A stretch of DNA of 54,566 bases, taken from a bacterium (GTDB lineage: Bacteria; Patescibacteriota; UBA1384; XYA2-FULL-43-10; JAKAMI01). The notes beneath the pieces are model-generated. The model made no database searches. It was not told the DNA's origin and saw only the letters and a program-made list of their open reading frames with translations. Positions 12,605-19,037 of this stretch are shown here, piece by piece (position 1 is the stretch's first letter; every line of letters starts with the position of its first letter). Location: contig JAKAMI010000003.1 of the NCBI GenBank assembly GCA_021812945.1, forward strand, positions 1 to 54,566. Direction: 5' to 3'. The translations under genes were made by a program, and so were the position numbers.

Positions 12605-12619
12605 AGTGTTACAATATAA

Positions 12620-12849
12620 GGATTCGGCCGGTACGTCGAAATAGACAATGGACACTTTATTACTTCCATCTACGCTCACTTAGACACTATTGATCCCAAA
12701 ATTCATGTTGGCGATACAATTACCGCTGGGACAATTATCGGCACCAGAGAGGTAGCACCGGCTGGTCAACCGGCCCGCACCTTCACTTCCAGATCAACAT
12801 TTTTGGGATACCTGTCAACCCGAGAACGTTTTTGACGGGAGACCCATAA
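12620..12849 (+). pseudogene. 5'-truncated, frameshifted M23 metallopeptidase remnant
   Basis: GFGRYVEIDNGHFITSIYAHL..VGD..GTIIGTR in one frame; GSTGWSTGPHLHFQI..PVNP..FL in another; shift at AGAGAG 12746-12751; upstream in-frame TAA at 12617-12619. Confidence 0.85.
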
Positions 12850-14088
12850 TTATTTTTTTCTTTTTCGATATTTATTTTCTGCAAGGCTAAGGTGATATTT
12901 GTGAAAATCATCGCTGTCTTTCTCGTTATCGAGCTGCAACATTTCGAAAGCTCGGCCACGGCGATATGGGCCGAATAGTTTAGCGAATTCACCCTTAAAA
13001 CGATAAAGAGTCTGGAATTCGTCATGTTTGCCATCTTCTTTGTTGTATTCTTGCTGCCAAGGACGACGGCCATAAGCATCAAATCCAATTGCTGGCCCAT
13101 TTTTGCTACCAATTAATATTTCGGCCGTATAATTTACGCCTCTTGGATCAGGCATCAGCAAATAACCGTTACCATAATCATGCCAATCACTTTTCGAGAT
13201 ATATTTTTCGGGGAAAAGCCATTCTTCTTTGCCTGCAGCAATATATCTGTATGCTCGATTCTTGATGATAAAATTAATTTCTCTAACTTCCTGCTCGGAC
13301 AGATGGCGTAGAACTTGCAGCTCGGTAAATTTGAAGATTGCTCCGCGGAAGAAGTCGGGATTTGGCCGCAGATCAGTTTCTTTTTGATAAGGATTTCTGA
13401 CCCATGAGAGGTTTGTCAAGATCAAGATCTTATCCATTGCTAGAGGGAATATCGTATGAGTGGCGTGAAATCTAATATCAGGATCATTGGTCCCTCGGCA
13501 CCAACCTGAACGCGGACCGCATCGGCGGTTATAAACCGTAACAGGGTGATCTGAAATTATAAACTTTGTGTCGGACTGAGAAGCGTCAGCAATTTGCCAA
13601 ATACATTCCGTCCAGATCGCACAATAAATTTGTCTAATACGGACCATAGAACCAAGTATTTTGTTCTGGTCAGTTGTATCAACTTGATCTGCCAACCATT
13701 TCAATCCCTTAGGCGTTCGAAGCTTTTGCGTGCTCATATACAGTAATAAGTTGTTAAAAGCTTCTCCATTGGCTGACGGATGCTGGAAGCTGGTAAAATA
13801 ATCTACTGCTTTTCGACCATTTGAATCAATCTGACCAAAAAAGAGTTGCTCGATCTTGGTTGACTCTTCCTGGCCGAAAGTCGTCGTATAGAGGTCATCT
13901 TCGGCAAAACACTGTTTGGTTCCAGTTTTCTTGAGTGCTCGTTTTGTATGAGAGACTCCTCTCGGGTCAATAAATGTTTCAGGTTTTAAATCCAGATAAT
14001 ATAAAATTTGATCCCGCTCAGGTGGATCGATAAAGCGTTTTTGATACCATTCCGGAACATAGTGGTTGTGATGGTATTCGTTAGCCAT
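12850..14088 (-). CDS. DUF4238-domain protein
   Basis: N-terminal HHYVPEWYQKRF; internal FIISDHPV; PLAMDKILIL. Confidence 0.85.
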   Translation of the reverse strand: MANEYHHNHYVPEWYQKRFIDPPERDQILYYLDLKPETFIDPRGVSHTKRALKKTGTKQCFAEDDLYTTTFGQEESTKIEQLFFGQIDSNGRKAVDYFTSFQHPSANGEAFNNLLLYMSTQKLRTPKGLKWLADQVDTTDQNKILGSMVRIRQIYCAIWTECIWQIADASQSDTKFIISDHPVTVYNRRCGPRSGWCRGTNDPDIRFHATHTIFPLAMDKILILTNLSWVRNPYQKETDLRPNPDFFRGAIFKFTELQVLRHLSEQEVREINFIIKNRAYRYIAAGKEEWLFPEKYISKSDWHDYGNGYLLMPDPRGVNYTAEILIGSKNGPAIGFDAYGRRPWQQEYNKEDGKHDEFQTLYRFKGEFAKLFGPYRRGRAFEMLQLDNEKDSDDFHKYHLSLAENKYRKRKK

Positions 14089-14938
14089 TTTCAGCCCTCA
14101 TCAACTTCAAAAGTTTATTCGATAGATCTGATTTTGTTTTGACATCTATAAACGCGAACGCACCTCGCTTTGAGATACGCTTAATTTTTCTAAGGCTGAA
14201 CCAACAGATCGAAAAGATTTTTCTTTTTGCAAAGCTAGCTAATTCTGGTTTATCCCGCAGCCAAATTTGGCTTAGAAATATTGAGAGTGAATCGTAAGCA
14301 GCCCAAACGGCAATTAAATAAATGAATGGCAAACAGCATAATGTAAAAACGATTGGTAAAAGAAATACCTCCAAATTGTGCAGTGTCCAAAAGCTTTGAA
14401 AGTTATGACTGATGTTCCAGGAGACAAAGAATAATAAATACAACCCGATAAGGCCGATTATTCTATCAGAGAACCTTTTAACCGGTAAAGTTTCCTTTTT
14501 GGCACCAGCAATAATACTAAATGCGGAAAGTAGAAACATTGCAGGAATTAGGATAATTTCACCCCAAACACTAAAGGCATAAAGACCGACAAGAAACTCG
14601 AGTACAACAACCCATTTTATGCTTTCAATAAATTGCTTTTTAAAATCCTCGCTAACTTTTTCGAAGTTGAGCAACATAATAAAAGCAGCACCGAGCCAAT
14701 AAATCGTATCCTTCAGTAATGAAATATCCCAGAGTTGAAAATGGCTAAATATTAAAACGATCAGAAGATTGTAAGTAAGCATCAAAATTACAGGAAGATC
14801 TATTTTTGGTTGCAGAGCTACTTCAAACAACGAAAAAAGTGACGCTCGAAATTCCTTCTTGGGCATAGCCCATAAGAGCACCAAAACAATAAAAACTAAA
14901 GAGACAAAGTCTCGATTGTTGAAATCCAAAAAATTCAT
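14081..14938 (-). CDS. Uncharacterised multi-pass membrane protein, overlapping the DUF4238 start by 8 nt
   Basis: 285-aa ORF, about 7 hydrophobic segments, basic C-tail. Confidence 0.75.
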   Translation of the reverse strand: MNFLDFNNRDFVSLVFIVLVLLWAMPKKEFRASLFSLFEVALQPKIDLPVILMLTYNLLIVLIFSHFQLWDISLLKDTIYWLGAAFIMLLNFEKVSEDFKKQFIESIKWVVVLEFLVGLYAFSVWGEIILIPAMFLLSAFSIIAGAKKETLPVKRFSDRIIGLIGLYLLFFVSWNISHNFQSFWTLHNLEVFLLPIVFTLCCLPFIYLIAVWAAYDSLSIFLSQIWLRDKPELASFAKRKIFSICWFSLRKIKRISKRGAFAFIDVKTKSDLSNKLLKLMRAENG

Positions 14939-14955
14939 GACTAATTCCTGAATAA

Positions 14956-14984
14956 ATCATAACATCCAAAAGTACGATGTTAAA
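14956..14984 (-). promoter_or_regulatory. Extended -10 promoter with overlapping inverted repeat upstream of the membrane/DUF4238 pair
   Basis: TTTAAC-17-TGt TATGAT (14961-14956); IR TAACATC-N9-GATGTTA (14960-14982). Confidence 0.5.
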
Positions 14985-15015
14985 TTGACTTAAACTTTTT
15001 CGGCCTAGTTTTTCC

Positions 15016-15546
15016 TTATTTACAGAAAATACACACGGGTTTAATCTCGGAAGCTTCTTCTGTTGCGATATAGTAAACCGTGTGAGGATGAATTACTGCG
15101 CCACATTTAGAACACGACTGGTCAATTTCAGATGACATATCCAAATATTCCGTCTGATGCTTGAATGATTTTTCTGTCTCTTCTTCAACTGCAGGTCTGT
15201 CAAATCGAAAAGACAATTCGGCCCTGAGCCGCTTAGATTTTGAGTCTTTAAAAGTGATGAAGAATTGTACTATTGGAATTGTTTTCTTTTTGTTCGGATT
15301 GTCTTTGTACCATTTATACAGGTTTTTCAATATATCGTAGATATAGTTTGATACGACACCGGTTAAAATTCCGCTAATATATTGATGACTATGAAGCCAA
15401 AGAACAATTTGTTCAGTACCCGGGCCCGCGCCGAGTTCGGTGCATCGTTCATAACGAAATCCTTGGCTTTCTAATTCTTTGGAAAGTTCTTTAATGCCGT
15501 TTTGTGAAAAACCACTAGAGTCATAAAAAAAGTACCAGTTTTTCAT
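15016..15546 (-). CDS. Hypothetical protein with C-terminal CxxC..CxxC zinc ribbon
   Basis: CSKC..CIFC; amphipathic helix GILTGVVSNYIYDILK. Confidence 0.65.
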   Translation of the reverse strand: MKNWYFFYDSSGFSQNGIKELSKELESQGFRYERCTELGAGPGTEQIVLWLHSHQYISGILTGVVSNYIYDILKNLYKWYKDNPNKKKTIPIVQFFITFKDSKSKRLRAELSFRFDRPAVEEETEKSFKHQTEYLDMSSEIDQSCSKCGAVIHPHTVYYIATEEASEIKPVCIFCK

Positions 15547-15548
15547 AG

Positions 15549-15818
15549 TTATTTTGCTTGTAAGTCTCTAATTTTCTCAATCACTTGCTTATAACTCACT
15601 AATTTGCCGTCGATCATTACACCACCAGCCCACAGCGACATCCAGTCACCATTTTTCGCAACAAGACGAGCTCCTGGATATTCACGATATTCCTTGACGA
15701 GCCGGTCTGGTCCTTGATTTAATAGCTCTAAAATTTTCTTCGAGAAATTATTATCCTGTTTTTCGAGGGCTTCGGTTAAATCGCTAACCAATTCATCAAG
15801 ATTTTTGTAGTTTTTCAT
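15549..15818 (-). CDS. Hypothetical protein (89 aa)
   Basis: Tightly packed ORF between Fic and the 176-aa gene. Confidence 0.6.
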   Translation of the reverse strand: MKNYKNLDELVSDLTEALEKQDNNFSKKILELLNQGPDRLVKEYREYPGARLVAKNGDWMSLWAGGVMIDGKLVSYKQVIEKIRDLQAK

Positions 15819-15838
15819 AATAAAAATATCAAGGATTG

Positions 15839-17029
15839 TTATTTTATGATTTTATTTTTCATTCTGGCTTCTTTGAACGAATCATCAAAAATTTCGTAAT
15901 AATCGGCATAAATATATTTCTGGGCATAATCAGAACTGCCTAGTGGTTCTAGGATTTTTAGATCTCGCAAACGATTGATCACTTTATAAGCACCTGGTTT
16001 GGTAAAACCGGTCCATTTCATTATTTCTGCAACACCTACAATAGGCTGTCCATATAGTTTGCGAACGATTTCCAGTGTTGAGTCTGCTGATTTTTTGCCA
16101 AGTTTTTGCATTTTGATAAAGTCGCAATCTCGAAGTGCAGTGATTTTGGCGCAGGCCTCGATAGATGATTCGGCAATCTCTGCGACTCCTTCGAGGAAAA
16201 ACTTGAGCCATTGGTCAATTTGTGTATCTTCGTCGTGGTAACCCTGCAGTTTTTCGTAATACAGCTTCTGAAATTTTTTAAAATAACTAGACAGATATAG
16301 AACGGGCAACTCCAAAAGCTTCGCATGGTGGATGTAGAGCGCAATTAACATTCGTCCGGTCCTGCCATTTCCATCAGAAAATGGGTGGATTGTTTCAAAT
16401 TGTGCGTGAATCAATCCGGCTTTAATAAGTGACGGGTAGTTGTCCTCAATGTGGATGAATTTTTCCAGATCATTGAGAGAATTTTGCATATCATGGGGCG
16501 CAGGCGGAACAAAGGAGGCATCGGCTGGCGTTTTACCGCCAATCCAGTTTTGGGAAACACGAAATTCGCCCGGGTAAGGGTGTTGAGTTGACCTGGCTTC
16601 GGTCATTAGCTTTTGGTGAATCTCCTTGATCATCCGAAGCGAGATTGGTAGAGTTTTGGTTCTTTCAATACCATAATTAACCGCATCGACATAATGGACG
16701 ATGTCGTCGACGTCAGGACTCAAACGGAGTTTGTCTTCGGTAACCGGTGCGGCTACAACATCTTGGAGTGTCGCTTTGGTTCCTTCAATTTGGCTGGAAT
16801 AAGCGGCATCTTTTTTGACGAACATCAACAGAAAGAAATTCTTATCCGGGAGGAGTCTGGTAATTCCGTCAAGTTTACCGACCAAACGAATTGCTTTCTC
16901 GTGTATTTTGTATAGTTCAGGGCTAATCTCAAAACCACCCTTTGGCGGAAATTCAAAAGGCGTGAAGGCGCGATATCTCTTCGGTTGCATCACATATTTA
17001 CCGATTTGTACTTTGTTTACTTCTTTCAT
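15839..17029 (-). CDS. Class II Fic-family protein with C-terminal wHTH
   Basis: HPFSDGNGRTGR catalytic motif; N-terminal SSQIEGT inhibitory motif. Confidence 0.93.
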   Translation of the reverse strand: MKEVNKVQIGKYVMQPKRYRAFTPFEFPPKGGFEISPELYKIHEKAIRLVGKLDGITRLLPDKNFFLLMFVKKDAAYSSQIEGTKATLQDVVAAPVTEDKLRLSPDVDDIVHYVDAVNYGIERTKTLPISLRMIKEIHQKLMTEARSTQHPYPGEFRVSQNWIGGKTPADASFVPPAPHDMQNSLNDLEKFIHIEDNYPSLIKAGLIHAQFETIHPFSDGNGRTGRMLIALYIHHAKLLELPVLYLSSYFKKFQKLYYEKLQGYHDEDTQIDQWLKFFLEGVAEIAESSIEACAKITALRDCDFIKMQKLGKKSADSTLEIVRKLYGQPIVGVAEIMKWTGFTKPGAYKVINRLRDLKILEPLGSSDYAQKYIYADYYEIFDDSFKEARMKNKIIK

Positions 17030-17042
17030 GGTAATGGTAACA

Positions 17043-17082
17043 TATTATCATATTATGTTTACCTTTGTCAAATGAGGTAAAC
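17043..17082 (-). promoter_or_regulatory. fic promoter with operator-like IR around -35
   Basis: TTGACA-18-TAATAT with TGn; IR GTTTACCT-N10-AGGTAAAC (17057-17082). Confidence 0.6.
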
Positions 17083-17478
17083 TGTTTGAACATGTCCCAC
17101 ACCATATATTTTATCACTTTGCCCTGCCCGAGAGAATAACAAAATCCAGTGTGACAAACTCGCTATATTGTCCAATCTTAGCTAAACAATGCTGCAAGTA
17201 TGTTGATACATCGCAGAATAAAAACGATCATCTTCGGAATAACAGATAGCAGCCGATCGAGAAGTACCAGTCGAAACTTGAACGGTTTCACGATTTCCGT
17301 TAGGACTATGTATTTTTACAACAAACTGTATTAATATACTTCAAAGAAATGCAAACTATAATCATATTTTTCAAACCGTAAATATCTGTGCCCTATCTAA
17401 ATTTGCCTTTCTACTTCACCAATCCTTATGTTTTTGGATTAATCAATTGATGACCCGATTAACAATCAAATTCTTCAT

Positions 17479-17767
17479 ATCTACAAAAGTAGAAATCTTA
17501 TGAAGGTATTAGATGTGAAGTTATTGACGACCCGAAGTACGGATCTACAAAAGTAGAAATCTTATGAAGGTATTAGATCTAGTAAAATATTGGTGTCTTC
17601 ATTTAAATCTACAAAAGTAGAAATCTTATGAAGGTATTAGATTCTTTGGCTTTGTATTTCTCTCCGATATCTACAAAAGTAGAAATCTTATGAAGGTATT
17701 AGATAGTCTGTTGAGTACGCCGATGGTTACGATCTACAAAAGTAGAAATCTTATGAAGGTATTAGAT
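17479..17767 (-). CRISPR. Type V-A CRISPR array: 5 identical 36-nt repeats, 4 spacers (28, 28, 26, 27 nt)
   Basis: Repeats at 17479, 17543, 17607, 17669, 17732; minus-strand repeat ATCTAATACCTTCATAAGATTTCTACTTTTGTAGAT ends in the Cas12a handle TTTCTAC-loop-GTAGAT. Confidence 0.97.
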
Positions 17768-18707
17768 TGGTTTTGTGATTGTAAAGATTAATTAAAAAAT
17801 TAGCATTTCCAACCGCTTTGTTGTAGACTTCAATCCCTTTTTGAGTTAAATACTCATTAAAGTTTGAAATTACAAATAAGTCTTTCTCGATTGGGTATAA
17901 CTCATTGTTTTTTTTATCTTCCAGCACAATTTTTTTACTTTTTAAATATTTATATATTCCCATATATTCGTCCATTTTGTCTGTAAACACCAATATATTG
18001 TCACAAAATCTCGGTAAATTATCATTGACAATCCTAGTAGCAACAGCAGTAGATTTTTCCTGTTTAGTGGTGTAATAGTTCTCGCGATTTTGACTAAAGC
18101 CACTAAAATAAGTAAAGAAACCTTTAAATCTTTTAATGGCATTCAAAATATCATCTTTGGACAACACCTTGTTATCTCGGGTTTCTACCCCGATAAACTC
18201 ATTGACATTTCTTCTAATATATTCCAAAATTCCAACTTCGGTTAAAACTTTAAACCCGCTTTTCTTTAAAATGTTTTTTTTCTTACTATCGAATCCAACT
18301 TTATTTTTGAACACTTCACCCACTTCACTGTAAGCCTTTTCGAATTGCATTCGTAGCTTCTTTTCTTCAATCTCTATTTGTTTATTAAGATGCTGTTTTT
18401 TATTTTTGTCTTGTTCGCTTCTCCGCTTTTCTACTAAGCTAAAATATTTGGAAAATGTAATAATCTTTGCAGTTTTCGATTCCAGTGCACCCGTAATAAA
18501 TTCCCCATGTATTTTATCAAAAATTGGTTTCAATACTTGATATGCATTTTCAATATCTTGATCAACAAGAAAAGTCTGCAACTTTTCATCGAATTGCAAA
18601 TTTTTATTAATATTTTCACGAGTTTTTCCAATCGGCCTTAACTCAAACCTAAGTGTCTTTGTCAGTGCAAACTTCTTTGTAAAAGAATGCCAAATTAATT
18701 TATTCAT
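17751..18707 (-). pseudogene. cas12a: Cas12a (Cpf1) N-terminal fragment (WED-I + REC1, 313 Cas-derived codons) ending inside the first CRISPR repeat
   Basis: FTKKFALTKTLRFELRPIGKT, KGFFTYFSGFSQNRENYY, STAVATRIVNDNLPRFCDN, YLTQKGIEVYN..INLYN; last 5 residues and TAA come from the repeat; no RuvC. Confidence 0.9.
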
Positions 18708-18796
18708 TACTTCCTTTCACTATGTGATTAAGATGTTTTTTTGATTCATCTTGATTCTGCGCTTTGTTGGGGGATTTTCAAGAGGGATGACAATCG

Positions 18797-18930
18797 CCCC
18801 GCCGCTGGTTGTGTAATTGCGGGCTTGTATTTGAGCTCGGTCATCGAATTGCCGCAACCGCCATAAGTCCCGGGTCTCAAGCCCTGAGGCGGTGATAAGG
18901 CGGTTGATGGTCAACCGACACCGGAGTGTT
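18797..18930 (-). ncRNA. Candidate 6S-like structured RNA
   Basis: Own promoter TTGAAT-17-TATATT (18966-18938); 5' CUCCGGUGUCGGUUG pairs with 3' CAACCAGCGGCGGGG (13/15 incl. GU); inner stem GGGCUUG/CAAGCCC. Confidence 0.4.
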
Positions 18931-18983
18931 TAGTTAGAATATACGCTTAGTGAAAAGTAAATTCAACCAATGAATACGTATGA

Positions 18984-19019
18984 AAAAATCACACAAGAAA
19001 ACCATCTCGTGTGATTTTT
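18984..19019 (-). terminator. Intrinsic terminator after hup
   Basis: 11-bp stem AAAAATCACAC/GTGTGATTTTT followed by a U-run on the minus strand. Confidence 0.7.
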
Positions 19020-19037
19020 CATATGTATTGGTCGAAA

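Follow-up and report, generated by a model that had tools for sequence, protein, structure and literature searches.

The contig analysed here, 54,566 nucleotides long and referred to below as the window, carries on its reverse strand the 5' part of a cas12a gene that runs to within 8 nt of the first repeat of a short type V-A CRISPR array. The locus is the dead remnant of a decayed type V-A system and not a new effector. Its features, with those of the surrounding island, are as follows.

12605..19037, no strand assigned: variable island, from tRNA-Pro(cgg) to the HU gene, delimited by composition and synteny
15839..17029, minus strand: Fic-domain defence-type neighbour gene (SoFic; PADLOC SoFic 1.4e-102, Pfam Fic_N/Fic on the identical gene of contig L003)
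17030..17478, minus strand: AT-rich trailer, 449 nt, from the last repeat to the Fic gene
17479..17767, minus strand: orphan, leaderless type V-A CRISPR array with five identical 36-nt repeats, ATCTAATACCTTCATAAGATTTCTACTTTTGTAGAT
17732-17767, 17669-17704, 17607-17642, 17543-17578 and 17479-17514, minus strand: the repeats, 5/5 identical
17705-17731, 17643-17668, 17579-17606 and 17515-17542, minus strand: the spacers, of 27, 26, 28 and 28 nt
17767..17768, minus strand: cas12a/repeat junction, ...CACAAAACCA / ATCTAATACC, with the true breakpoint 0-8 nt upstream of the repeat edge
17751..18707, minus strand: open reading frame of 318 aa, uninterrupted from an ATG start at 18707
17768..18707, minus strand: cas12a-derived part of this frame, made up of codons 1-313 and one further nt and comprising WED-I with roughly the first 80% of REC1
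17751..17767, minus strand: tail of the frame supplied by repeat 1 (last two bases of N314, then L-I-P-S and TAA), by direct reading
18715-18710, minus strand: SD-like AGGAAG, a putative native cas12a signal, by direct reading
18781-18754, minus strand: promoter-like TTGAAA-16-CAGAAT, a putative native cas12a signal, from a consensus scan only
18710..18781, minus strand: the whole stretch of putative cas12a expression signals

The N-terminal WED-I and REC1 homology that identifies a Cas12a effector is present in the stub. The Pfam REC1 profile matches it at 2.7e-29 over positions 2-207 of 250, the PADLOC Cas12a model at 1.2e-72 over positions 5-305 of 1363, and Cas12a chains in the PDB at up to 3.6e-23, in alignments that extend to residue 313 and pair the stub residues INLYNHKT with INLYNQKN of Lb2. 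Only 6 of 70 highly conserved Cas12a columns are changed, mostly conservatively, and intact homologues vary as much. A preliminary description of this DNA had reported a 313-codon frame with an SD and no nonsense mutation; the frame is indeed uninterrupted and the SD is present, but it is 318 codons long, 313 of them derived from cas12a. The repeat begins (base 1, at 17767) with the second base of codon 314 and so supplies two thirds of the N codon, L-I-P-S and the TAA stop, and reading from codon 314 onward bears out the earlier statement that the NLIPS tail and the terminator come from the repeat.

Beyond this point the effector is gone. The REC1 match stops at profile position 207 of 250 and the frame at aa 318, leaving the stub with neither a complete REC1 nor any REC2, WED-II, PI or WED-III. 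Translated searches (tblastn) of the 54.6-kb window found no homology to RuvC/Nuc, WED-III, cas4, cas1 or cas2 (best E 0.18), to the middle part of Cas12a (a 729-aa query from locus L007; best E 1.4) or to a segment spanning RuvC-I/II/III and the Nuc lobe (best E 0.57), and the Cas4, Cas1 and Cas2 proteins of a complete type V-A locus likewise had no matches within it. The leader is missing as well: coding sequence abuts repeat 1, and a search for the conserved GGCTTA motif of the leader end was negative in the window. The preliminary description had listed RuvC/Nuc, the WED-III region, cas1/2/4 and the leader as lost, and the searches agree with it. The parts absent from the stub are those responsible for crRNA-handle binding, pre-crRNA processing, PAM recognition and DNA cleavage in Cas12a. 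Since it lacks WED-II/III, PI, REC2 and RuvC/Nuc, the 318-aa product could neither process the array nor interfere. Between the open reading frame and the array there is no terminator-like site, and any transcript would therefore continue across the repeats; the stub mRNA, started from the putative old cas12a promoter, may carry the array at its 3' end, and nothing in the window could process such a transcript.

The array itself has the hallmarks of type V-A. At its 3' end the repeat forms the Cas12a handle stem-loop, TCTAC-TTTT-GTAGA-T, and the handle motif occurs five times against 0.28 occurrences expected by chance. The 19-nt handle, GATTTCTACTTTTGTAGAT, is common to the window repeat and to more than 200 CPR arrays adjoining cas12a or cas2. 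The four spacers are unique, and their lengths of 26-28 nt lie within the range of about 26-30 nt typical of such arrays. All five repeats are identical and the one at the junction is a full 36 nt, as had been noted earlier. No second copies or self-targets of the four spacers were found in the window; in IMG/VR three spacers returned nothing, and one returned a chance match of 20/28 lacking a T-rich PAM. In the trailer, tblastn detected no cas remnant, and local alignment of the repeat gave no degenerate terminal copy that scored better than shuffles.

The cas12a homology is secure up to NLYN, at codon 310. Codon 311 of the stub is H where Q is invariant in 20 homologues, and relatives are variable beyond that position; no origin can therefore be assigned to the 7-8 nt (C AAA ACC A) that immediately precede the repeat. 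Because secure homology stops at NLYN, the breakpoint can be placed only within 8 nt or less of the repeat. The earlier statement that homology runs to within a few nucleotides of the repeat thus holds in that the end lies near the edge, while the INLYNHK it cited is secure only as far as NLYN. A recent single deletion through ATCTAA microhomology had been among the earlier options; the closest full-length relative against which it could be judged is 54% identical in amino acids, and a relative at the DNA level was absent from all fetched loci.

Genome and metagenome collections were scanned for the 19-nt handle, which yielded at least 119 and at least 120 stretches respectively, and homology to Cas12a, Cas4, Cas1 and Cas2 was mapped relative to the first repeat of each array. 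Among the matches listed, 74 distinct loci are canonical CPR type V-A systems in which cas2 lies upstream of repeat 1 and stops 115-300 nt short of it, and a GGCTTA(...TAAGCC) motif stands near the leader end in 51 of these (69%), again among the matches listed. The window shares with the canonical arrangement (cas12a-cas4-cas1-cas2-leader-array, as in L060, which is Kiruna_bin-03023, and L007) the 36-nt repeat, the handle, the spacer length and an array downstream of cas12a on the same strand, and the Cas12a N-termini of canonical loci are 40-54% identical to its own. In contrast to them, it lacks about 75% of cas12a, the adaptation genes and the leader, and its repeat abuts coding sequence. 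Overall, cas12a 5' stubs next to repeats were found in six lineages, including the window, among at least ~240 handle loci.

Window: stub of 313 aa; complete repeat, with the breakpoint 8 nt or less from its 5' edge
L081 (SR1 HOT-345): stub to about aa 1004, cut after the RuvC-II motif FEDLNAGFK; complete repeat, joined at its 5' edge
L061 (Saccharibacteria): stub to about aa 190, ending ...QSSTGS; complete repeat, joined at its 5' edge
L049: stub to about aa 160; joined inside the repeat, at the start of the stem-loop
L092: stub to about aa 56; part of the leader kept
L159: stub of about 37 aa; about 40 nt without assigned origin, then one repeat

Coding sequence reaches the 5' edge of a complete repeat in half of these lineages, namely the window, L081 and L061. 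For L061 we considered whether cas12a homology might run on into the repeat (VYSI against AYRI), and rejected this, as the first 9 nt, GTTTATTCC, are identical to the L024 repeat. What is new here is that, in unrelated lineages, cas12a coding sequence has repeatedly been joined to a repeat precisely at its edge, as the integration option of the preliminary description had anticipated.

L081 is the case in which the ancestral state can be reconstructed. Up to the junction its cas12a is 93-94% identical in DNA to that of three intact loci (L209, L131 and L171). The ancestral gene at the breakpoint reads ...GGC TTC AA/A AGA GGT (GFKRGR) and the ancestral leader/repeat boundary reads ...AAAGTGGA / GTTTAGAA, while the L081 junction reads ...GGT TTC AA / GTTTAGAAC. 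The deletion removed 5.1-6.5 kb, its right end coincides with the leader-repeat junction within 1 nt, and microhomology at the junction amounts to 1 nt at most. A foreign end is thus joined to nucleotide 1 of the repeat, within 1 nt; at the window junction, examined for the same kind of join, the repeat is complete and the breakpoint is resolved to 8 nt or less. Spacers shared between L081 and its intact relatives, which would mark the retained repeat as the leader-proximal one, were sought among these loci and none was found, a point that weighs against an integrase origin.

For the window we infer a single event, its size and the involvement of an integrase. One deletion of about 5-6 kb would have removed cas12a from codon ~314 onward together with cas4, cas1, cas2 and the leader, so that what is left of cas12a came to abut a CRISPR repeat at its 5' edge. 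We suggest that this deletion was made by the locus's own adaptation machinery, Cas1-Cas2, a reading to which we give a probability of roughly 40% and which is suggestive rather than proven. It is favoured as a cause because the 5' edge of the repeat is the first, leader-side, strand-transfer site of Cas1-Cas2. In the proposed sequence of steps, a broken or resected 3' end inside cas12a would take the part of an oversized "prespacer", and leader-side half-site integration would link it to the first nucleotide of repeat 1. The polarity would be as required: the left fragment of a break in cas12a ends in a top-strand 3'-OH, and its transfer to the top-strand leader-repeat junction would give cas12a(5')-repeat 1 and release the rest of the operon. 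We know of no experiment in which Cas1-Cas2 joins a chromosomal end in vivo.

The biochemistry of the Francisella novicida type V-A system is consistent with several of these steps. Its Cas1 alone makes leader-side half-site products, in which a DNA 3' end is joined to nucleotide 1 of the leader-proximal repeat; integration accepts prespacers of widely different length provided that they have a 3' overhang, and half-site products build up when full-site integration fails (PMC13034035). Integration there also depends on the repeat's initial six bases, including TCTA at positions 2-5 (PMC13034035), and the window repeat (ATCTAA...) carries TCTA at the same positions. The substrates in that work were short prespacers, in vitro or in E. 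coli (PMC13034035), whereas the use of a chromosomal end is our extension to the present case. Nicks made by integration at the leader-proximal repeat are known to give rise to free DNA ends and to self-spacer hotspots (PMC5737086). That a broken cas12a end was integrated at the repeat boundary had been one of several options in the preliminary description; it now gains indirect, comparative support from the edge-precise joins of L081 and L061, although the window breakpoint itself is fixed only to 8 nt or less. On the other hand, the chance of a breakpoint falling that close to a repeat edge is about 0.14 for the window taken singly, which counts against an integrase, as does the observation that three of the six stubs (L049, L092 and L159) are not edge-precise. 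The more general proposal, that edge-precise cas12a::repeat-1 fusions are genomic scars of an integrase deleting its own genes and leader, is a tentative one.

Intramolecular transposition by insertion sequences and transposons makes adjacent deletions, and Cas1 is related to casposases. Such deletions resemble the joins described here in having one endpoint fixed at a recombinase site and the other variable, with absent or minimal microhomology. The difference lies in the roles of the two ends: in transposition the fixed end attacks, whereas in the proposed Cas1-Cas2 route the fixed end would be the target and the variable end would supply the attacking 3'-OH. Orphan arrays such as that of Lactobacillus acidophilus NCFM (PMC6990116) are alike in that a frozen array outlives its cas genes and that escape from autoimmunity is a plausible driver; unlike them, the window keeps a cas stub, and one deletion endpoint is still readable, at an integrase target site. 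The deletions that follow self-targeting (Vercoe 2013 and Selle 2015, as cited in PMC6990116) are likewise kilobase-sized and disable targeting, but they are described there as using IS copies or microhomologies at arbitrary sites, and the account given of them in PMC6990116 reports none ending at a leader-repeat junction.

Taken alone, the window locus is an ordinary pseudogene with an orphan array, and annotation as a "Cas12a system" or "mini-Cas12a" is unwarranted. Its value is as one of several independent cas stubs that preserve the endpoint of a killing deletion, an endpoint that coincides with the target site of the integrase. Should the pattern hold in a larger survey, natural genomes would show that leader-side half-site integration, known until now chiefly as an intermediate in vitro, has mutagenic consequences; the frequent loss of CRISPR-Cas would gain a mechanism, as would the origin of leaderless orphan arrays, and the process would be testable in the Francisella V-A model. 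If the proposal is true, self-inflicted, site-specific loss of CRISPR-Cas, akin to the adjacent deletions made by transposases, could be read from natural genomes.

The strongest competitor to an integrase-made deletion is an ordinary illegitimate one, by replication slippage or alternative end joining with zero to a few nucleotides of microhomology, whose endpoint fell near the repeat edge by chance. We consider this somewhat unlikely. Any internal deletion of a cas12a...array locus necessarily leaves a 5' stub and distal repeats, alternative end joining with 1-9 bp of microhomology is a documented deletion route (PMC6990116), and both the three stubs that are not edge-precise and the uncertainty of up to 8 nt in the window are readily accommodated. 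The L081 deletion fits less well, as its endpoint is no more than 1 nt away from the leader-repeat junction, microhomology is 1 nt at most and no partial spacer is evident. Likewise, three of six stubs at or near the edge would be unexpected if endpoints were uniformly distributed (a rough binomial p of about 0.01-0.04, calculated post hoc).

A second alternative is autoimmune: the array would have acquired a same-orientation spacer derived from cas12a, Cas12a would have cut the matching protospacer, and single-strand annealing or recombination between spacer and protospacer would have deleted the interval. This predicts seamless coding sequence up to the 5' edge of the next repeat. DNA next to CRISPR loci is known to be a hotspot for the uptake of self-spacers (PMC5737086), cas genes are known to be lost as an escape from self-targeting (PMC6990116), and TTTN is the type V-A PAM (PMC13034035). 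The window has TTTT at offsets -26, -27 and -28 from the junction, equal to the spacer lengths of its own array, an observation that fits this route and counts against the integrase; the base rate in this gene is 12%, and a run of T in a gene of 30% GC is weak evidence. No TTTN lies 26-28 nt upstream of the junction in L081 (CGTT, TCGT, ATCG) or in L061 (AACA, TAAC, ATAA), and recombination would have to proceed across only 26-28 bp. Overall, we regard the autoimmune route as improbable.

Whatever made the deletion, the remnant might have been kept as a functional module, with the stub acting as a regulator or a dominant-negative REC1 or the array giving crRNAs in trans to a Cas12a encoded elsewhere in the genome. 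The intact frame, the SD and the retained conserved residues would suit such a role; the handle is the same as in many CPR V-A systems, so that a co-resident Cas12a could use the transcripts; and the locus is unchanged across samples. The identical repeats, the intact reading frame, the conserved columns and a GC content that has yet to ameliorate point to a recent deletion, which would predict all of them, and the kept residues are therefore no evidence of selection. A second cas12a was not seen in the 54.6 kb, and persistence is uninformative on selection where all copies belong to one population. The truncation falls within REC1, whose profile is matched over positions 2-207 of 250, and established Cas12a structures indicate that WED-I alone cannot form the WED fold. 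Stub lengths in the other lineages are unrelated, and there is no conserved stand-alone family: among candidates for a family of Cas12a N-terminal proteins, P0002, P0007, P0015 and P0018 proved to be frameshifted or split pieces of longer genes, while the remaining short proteins end at contig ends, and none has a repeat-encoded tail. A retained module, which the preliminary description had offered as an option, is thus without positive support and very unlikely.

The locus recurs in independent assemblies. An identical 318-aa protein is on record on eight contigs, of which four (L002-L005) were examined as DNA loci; they come from two ENA assemblies, one NCBI MAG (GCA_021842565.1) and one Logan assembly, representing four different samples. 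Over 1.7-11 kb each of them matches the window at 99.95-100% identity, and each has the same junction sequence. L003 and L004 read through the complete array, which has the same four spacers, and on into the Fic gene, whereas L002 and L005 end just inside repeat 1. Misassembly at the repeat, also raised by the preliminary description, is excluded by the presence of the same junction in four further contigs from four samples, and any artefact is extremely improbable: contigs that break just inside repeat 1 reflect common assembler behaviour at CRISPR arrays, but the junction is internal to all five contigs, three pipelines recovered it, two contigs reach unique flanking DNA, and a 36-nt repeat is unable to create a cas12a/repeat k-mer that is absent from the reads. 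No spacer turnover was seen between samples in the comparison of the window, L003 and L004. The array is frozen, and the near-identity of the assemblies and the shared spacers indicate a single population.

The remnant lies in a variable island whose content comprises a DUF4238 gene, three unknown ORFs, SoFic, the array and the cas12a stub. In the composition profile the GC content at the remnant is 29-32%, compared with 43-55% in the flanking core genes. Two syntenic relatives, L249 and L252, whose RNase Y is 85% and 80% identical, retain the gene order RNase Y-YmdB-HU ... tRNA-Pro(cgg)-tRNA-Arg-DUF881. In both, the interval from HU to tRNA-Pro holds other genes and neither cas12a nor an array, which identifies it as variable. 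An Rfam search of the 16-20 kb region returned only sub-threshold matches to miRNA models, on the HU terminator hairpin. Judged by its sequence relationships, the host is a Patescibacteria (CPR) genome of Berkelbacteria-like affinity. Its Cas12a is of CPR type, as the earlier label "Peregrinibacteria-type" implied, but the label holds only approximately: the host RNase Y is closest to proteins under that name, at 63-66% identity, and the nearest repeat among the matches listed, with 2 mismatches, is that of a Berkelbacteria MAG (L113).

The truncated cas12a gene of the SR1 bacterium HOT-345 (L081, 6644-8000, in MPSQ01000001.1) is fused to an array of 26 repeats and, since it is retained only through the RuvC-II glutamate motif (FEDLNAGFK), its predicted product, judged from sequence, would be a Cas12a without RuvC-III/Nuc. 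About 20 kb away on the same contig, this genome has another V-A array (L124), whose leader is canonical.

Broken cas12a genes also occur in other loci. The closest Cas12a homologue (L001, 10001-11296; 54% identity), located where a 772-kb contig ends, contains a frameshift past residue ~334. Another locus (L007, 2673-6933) has three abutting cas12a pieces followed by intact cas4-cas1-cas2. The frameshift and the split gene are the result of either decay or sequencing errors.

Truncated or solitary repeats were found in several other settings:

L049, 6764-6920: remnant array with both end repeats truncated
L041 (JAGYNK010000012.1), ~2260-2559 (coordinates in minus-strand orientation): junction of a Y2 transposase ORF (Pfam Y2_Tnp) and a repeat
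L121, 1206 and 1994: solitary repeat pair, with a matching pair in L165, L191 and L194

The first repeat of the remnant array is truncated on its 5' side, with cas12a joined where the stem-loop begins, and the last repeat on its 3' side (...TTTCTACTTTT|caataa). At L041, a truncated IS91-family Y2 transposase ORF (matching profile positions 11-103 of 183) runs straight into a V-A repeat that stands alone; an array of six repeats lies 2.1 kb away. The junction may be a further join between the 5' edge of a repeat and arbitrary DNA. The members of the solitary pair (GTTTAGAAAC... and GTTCAGAAAC...) lie ~790 nt apart, and their flanks are common to several contigs.

Single repeats are also associated with cas12a itself:

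L032, 7784-7819: single repeat upstream of intact cas12a
L043, 888-923: single repeat upstream of intact cas12a
L058, 6693-6728, minus strand: single repeat upstream of intact cas12a
L072, 7555-7590: single repeat on the same strand as cas12a

The first three, all full-length, are positioned 70-300 nt upstream of the cas12a start codons. Repeat-derived autoregulatory elements have been described for other cas operons, and these upstream repeats resemble them.

Some tRNA or tRNA-like genes are followed, 5-17 nt past their 3' ends, by a solitary copy of the Cas12a crRNA handle GATTTCTACTTTTGTAGAT, an arrangement seen in at least three distinct contexts and recurring across many metagenome contigs among the matches listed:

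L133, 420-540: solitary handle after tRNA(UCA)
L146, 7273-7470, minus strand: solitary handle, then a hairpin and another tRNA-like sequence (no ARAGORN call for the latter)
L212; L134/L163/L180; L073/L139/L150/L166/L213/L239: solitary handle after a tRNA or tRNA-like gene

Such handles may be solo guides processed via the tRNA.

Among the 74 canonical CPR V-A loci in the matches listed (L009-L248), 69% of leaders share a conserved leader-end motif, tctttttGGCTTAnnTAAGCC, whose 3' end falls ~8-10 nt ahead of repeat 1; it is a candidate site for leader anchoring or a host factor.

Within the window, a GC-rich intergenic stretch of ~200 nt (18735-18945) separates the cas12a stub from the HU terminator hairpin; it had no match in Rfam and a folding z-score of just -1.7. 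A low-GC island (12605-17029) adjoins tRNA-Pro(cgg) and contains:

12850-14088: DUF4238 protein
14081-14938: 285-aa ORF, membrane-protein-like as judged by eye
15839-17029: SoFic-type Fic gene
within 12605-17029: two small unknown ORFs

This island looks like a defence-type hotspot, and the cargo at this site differs in relatives.
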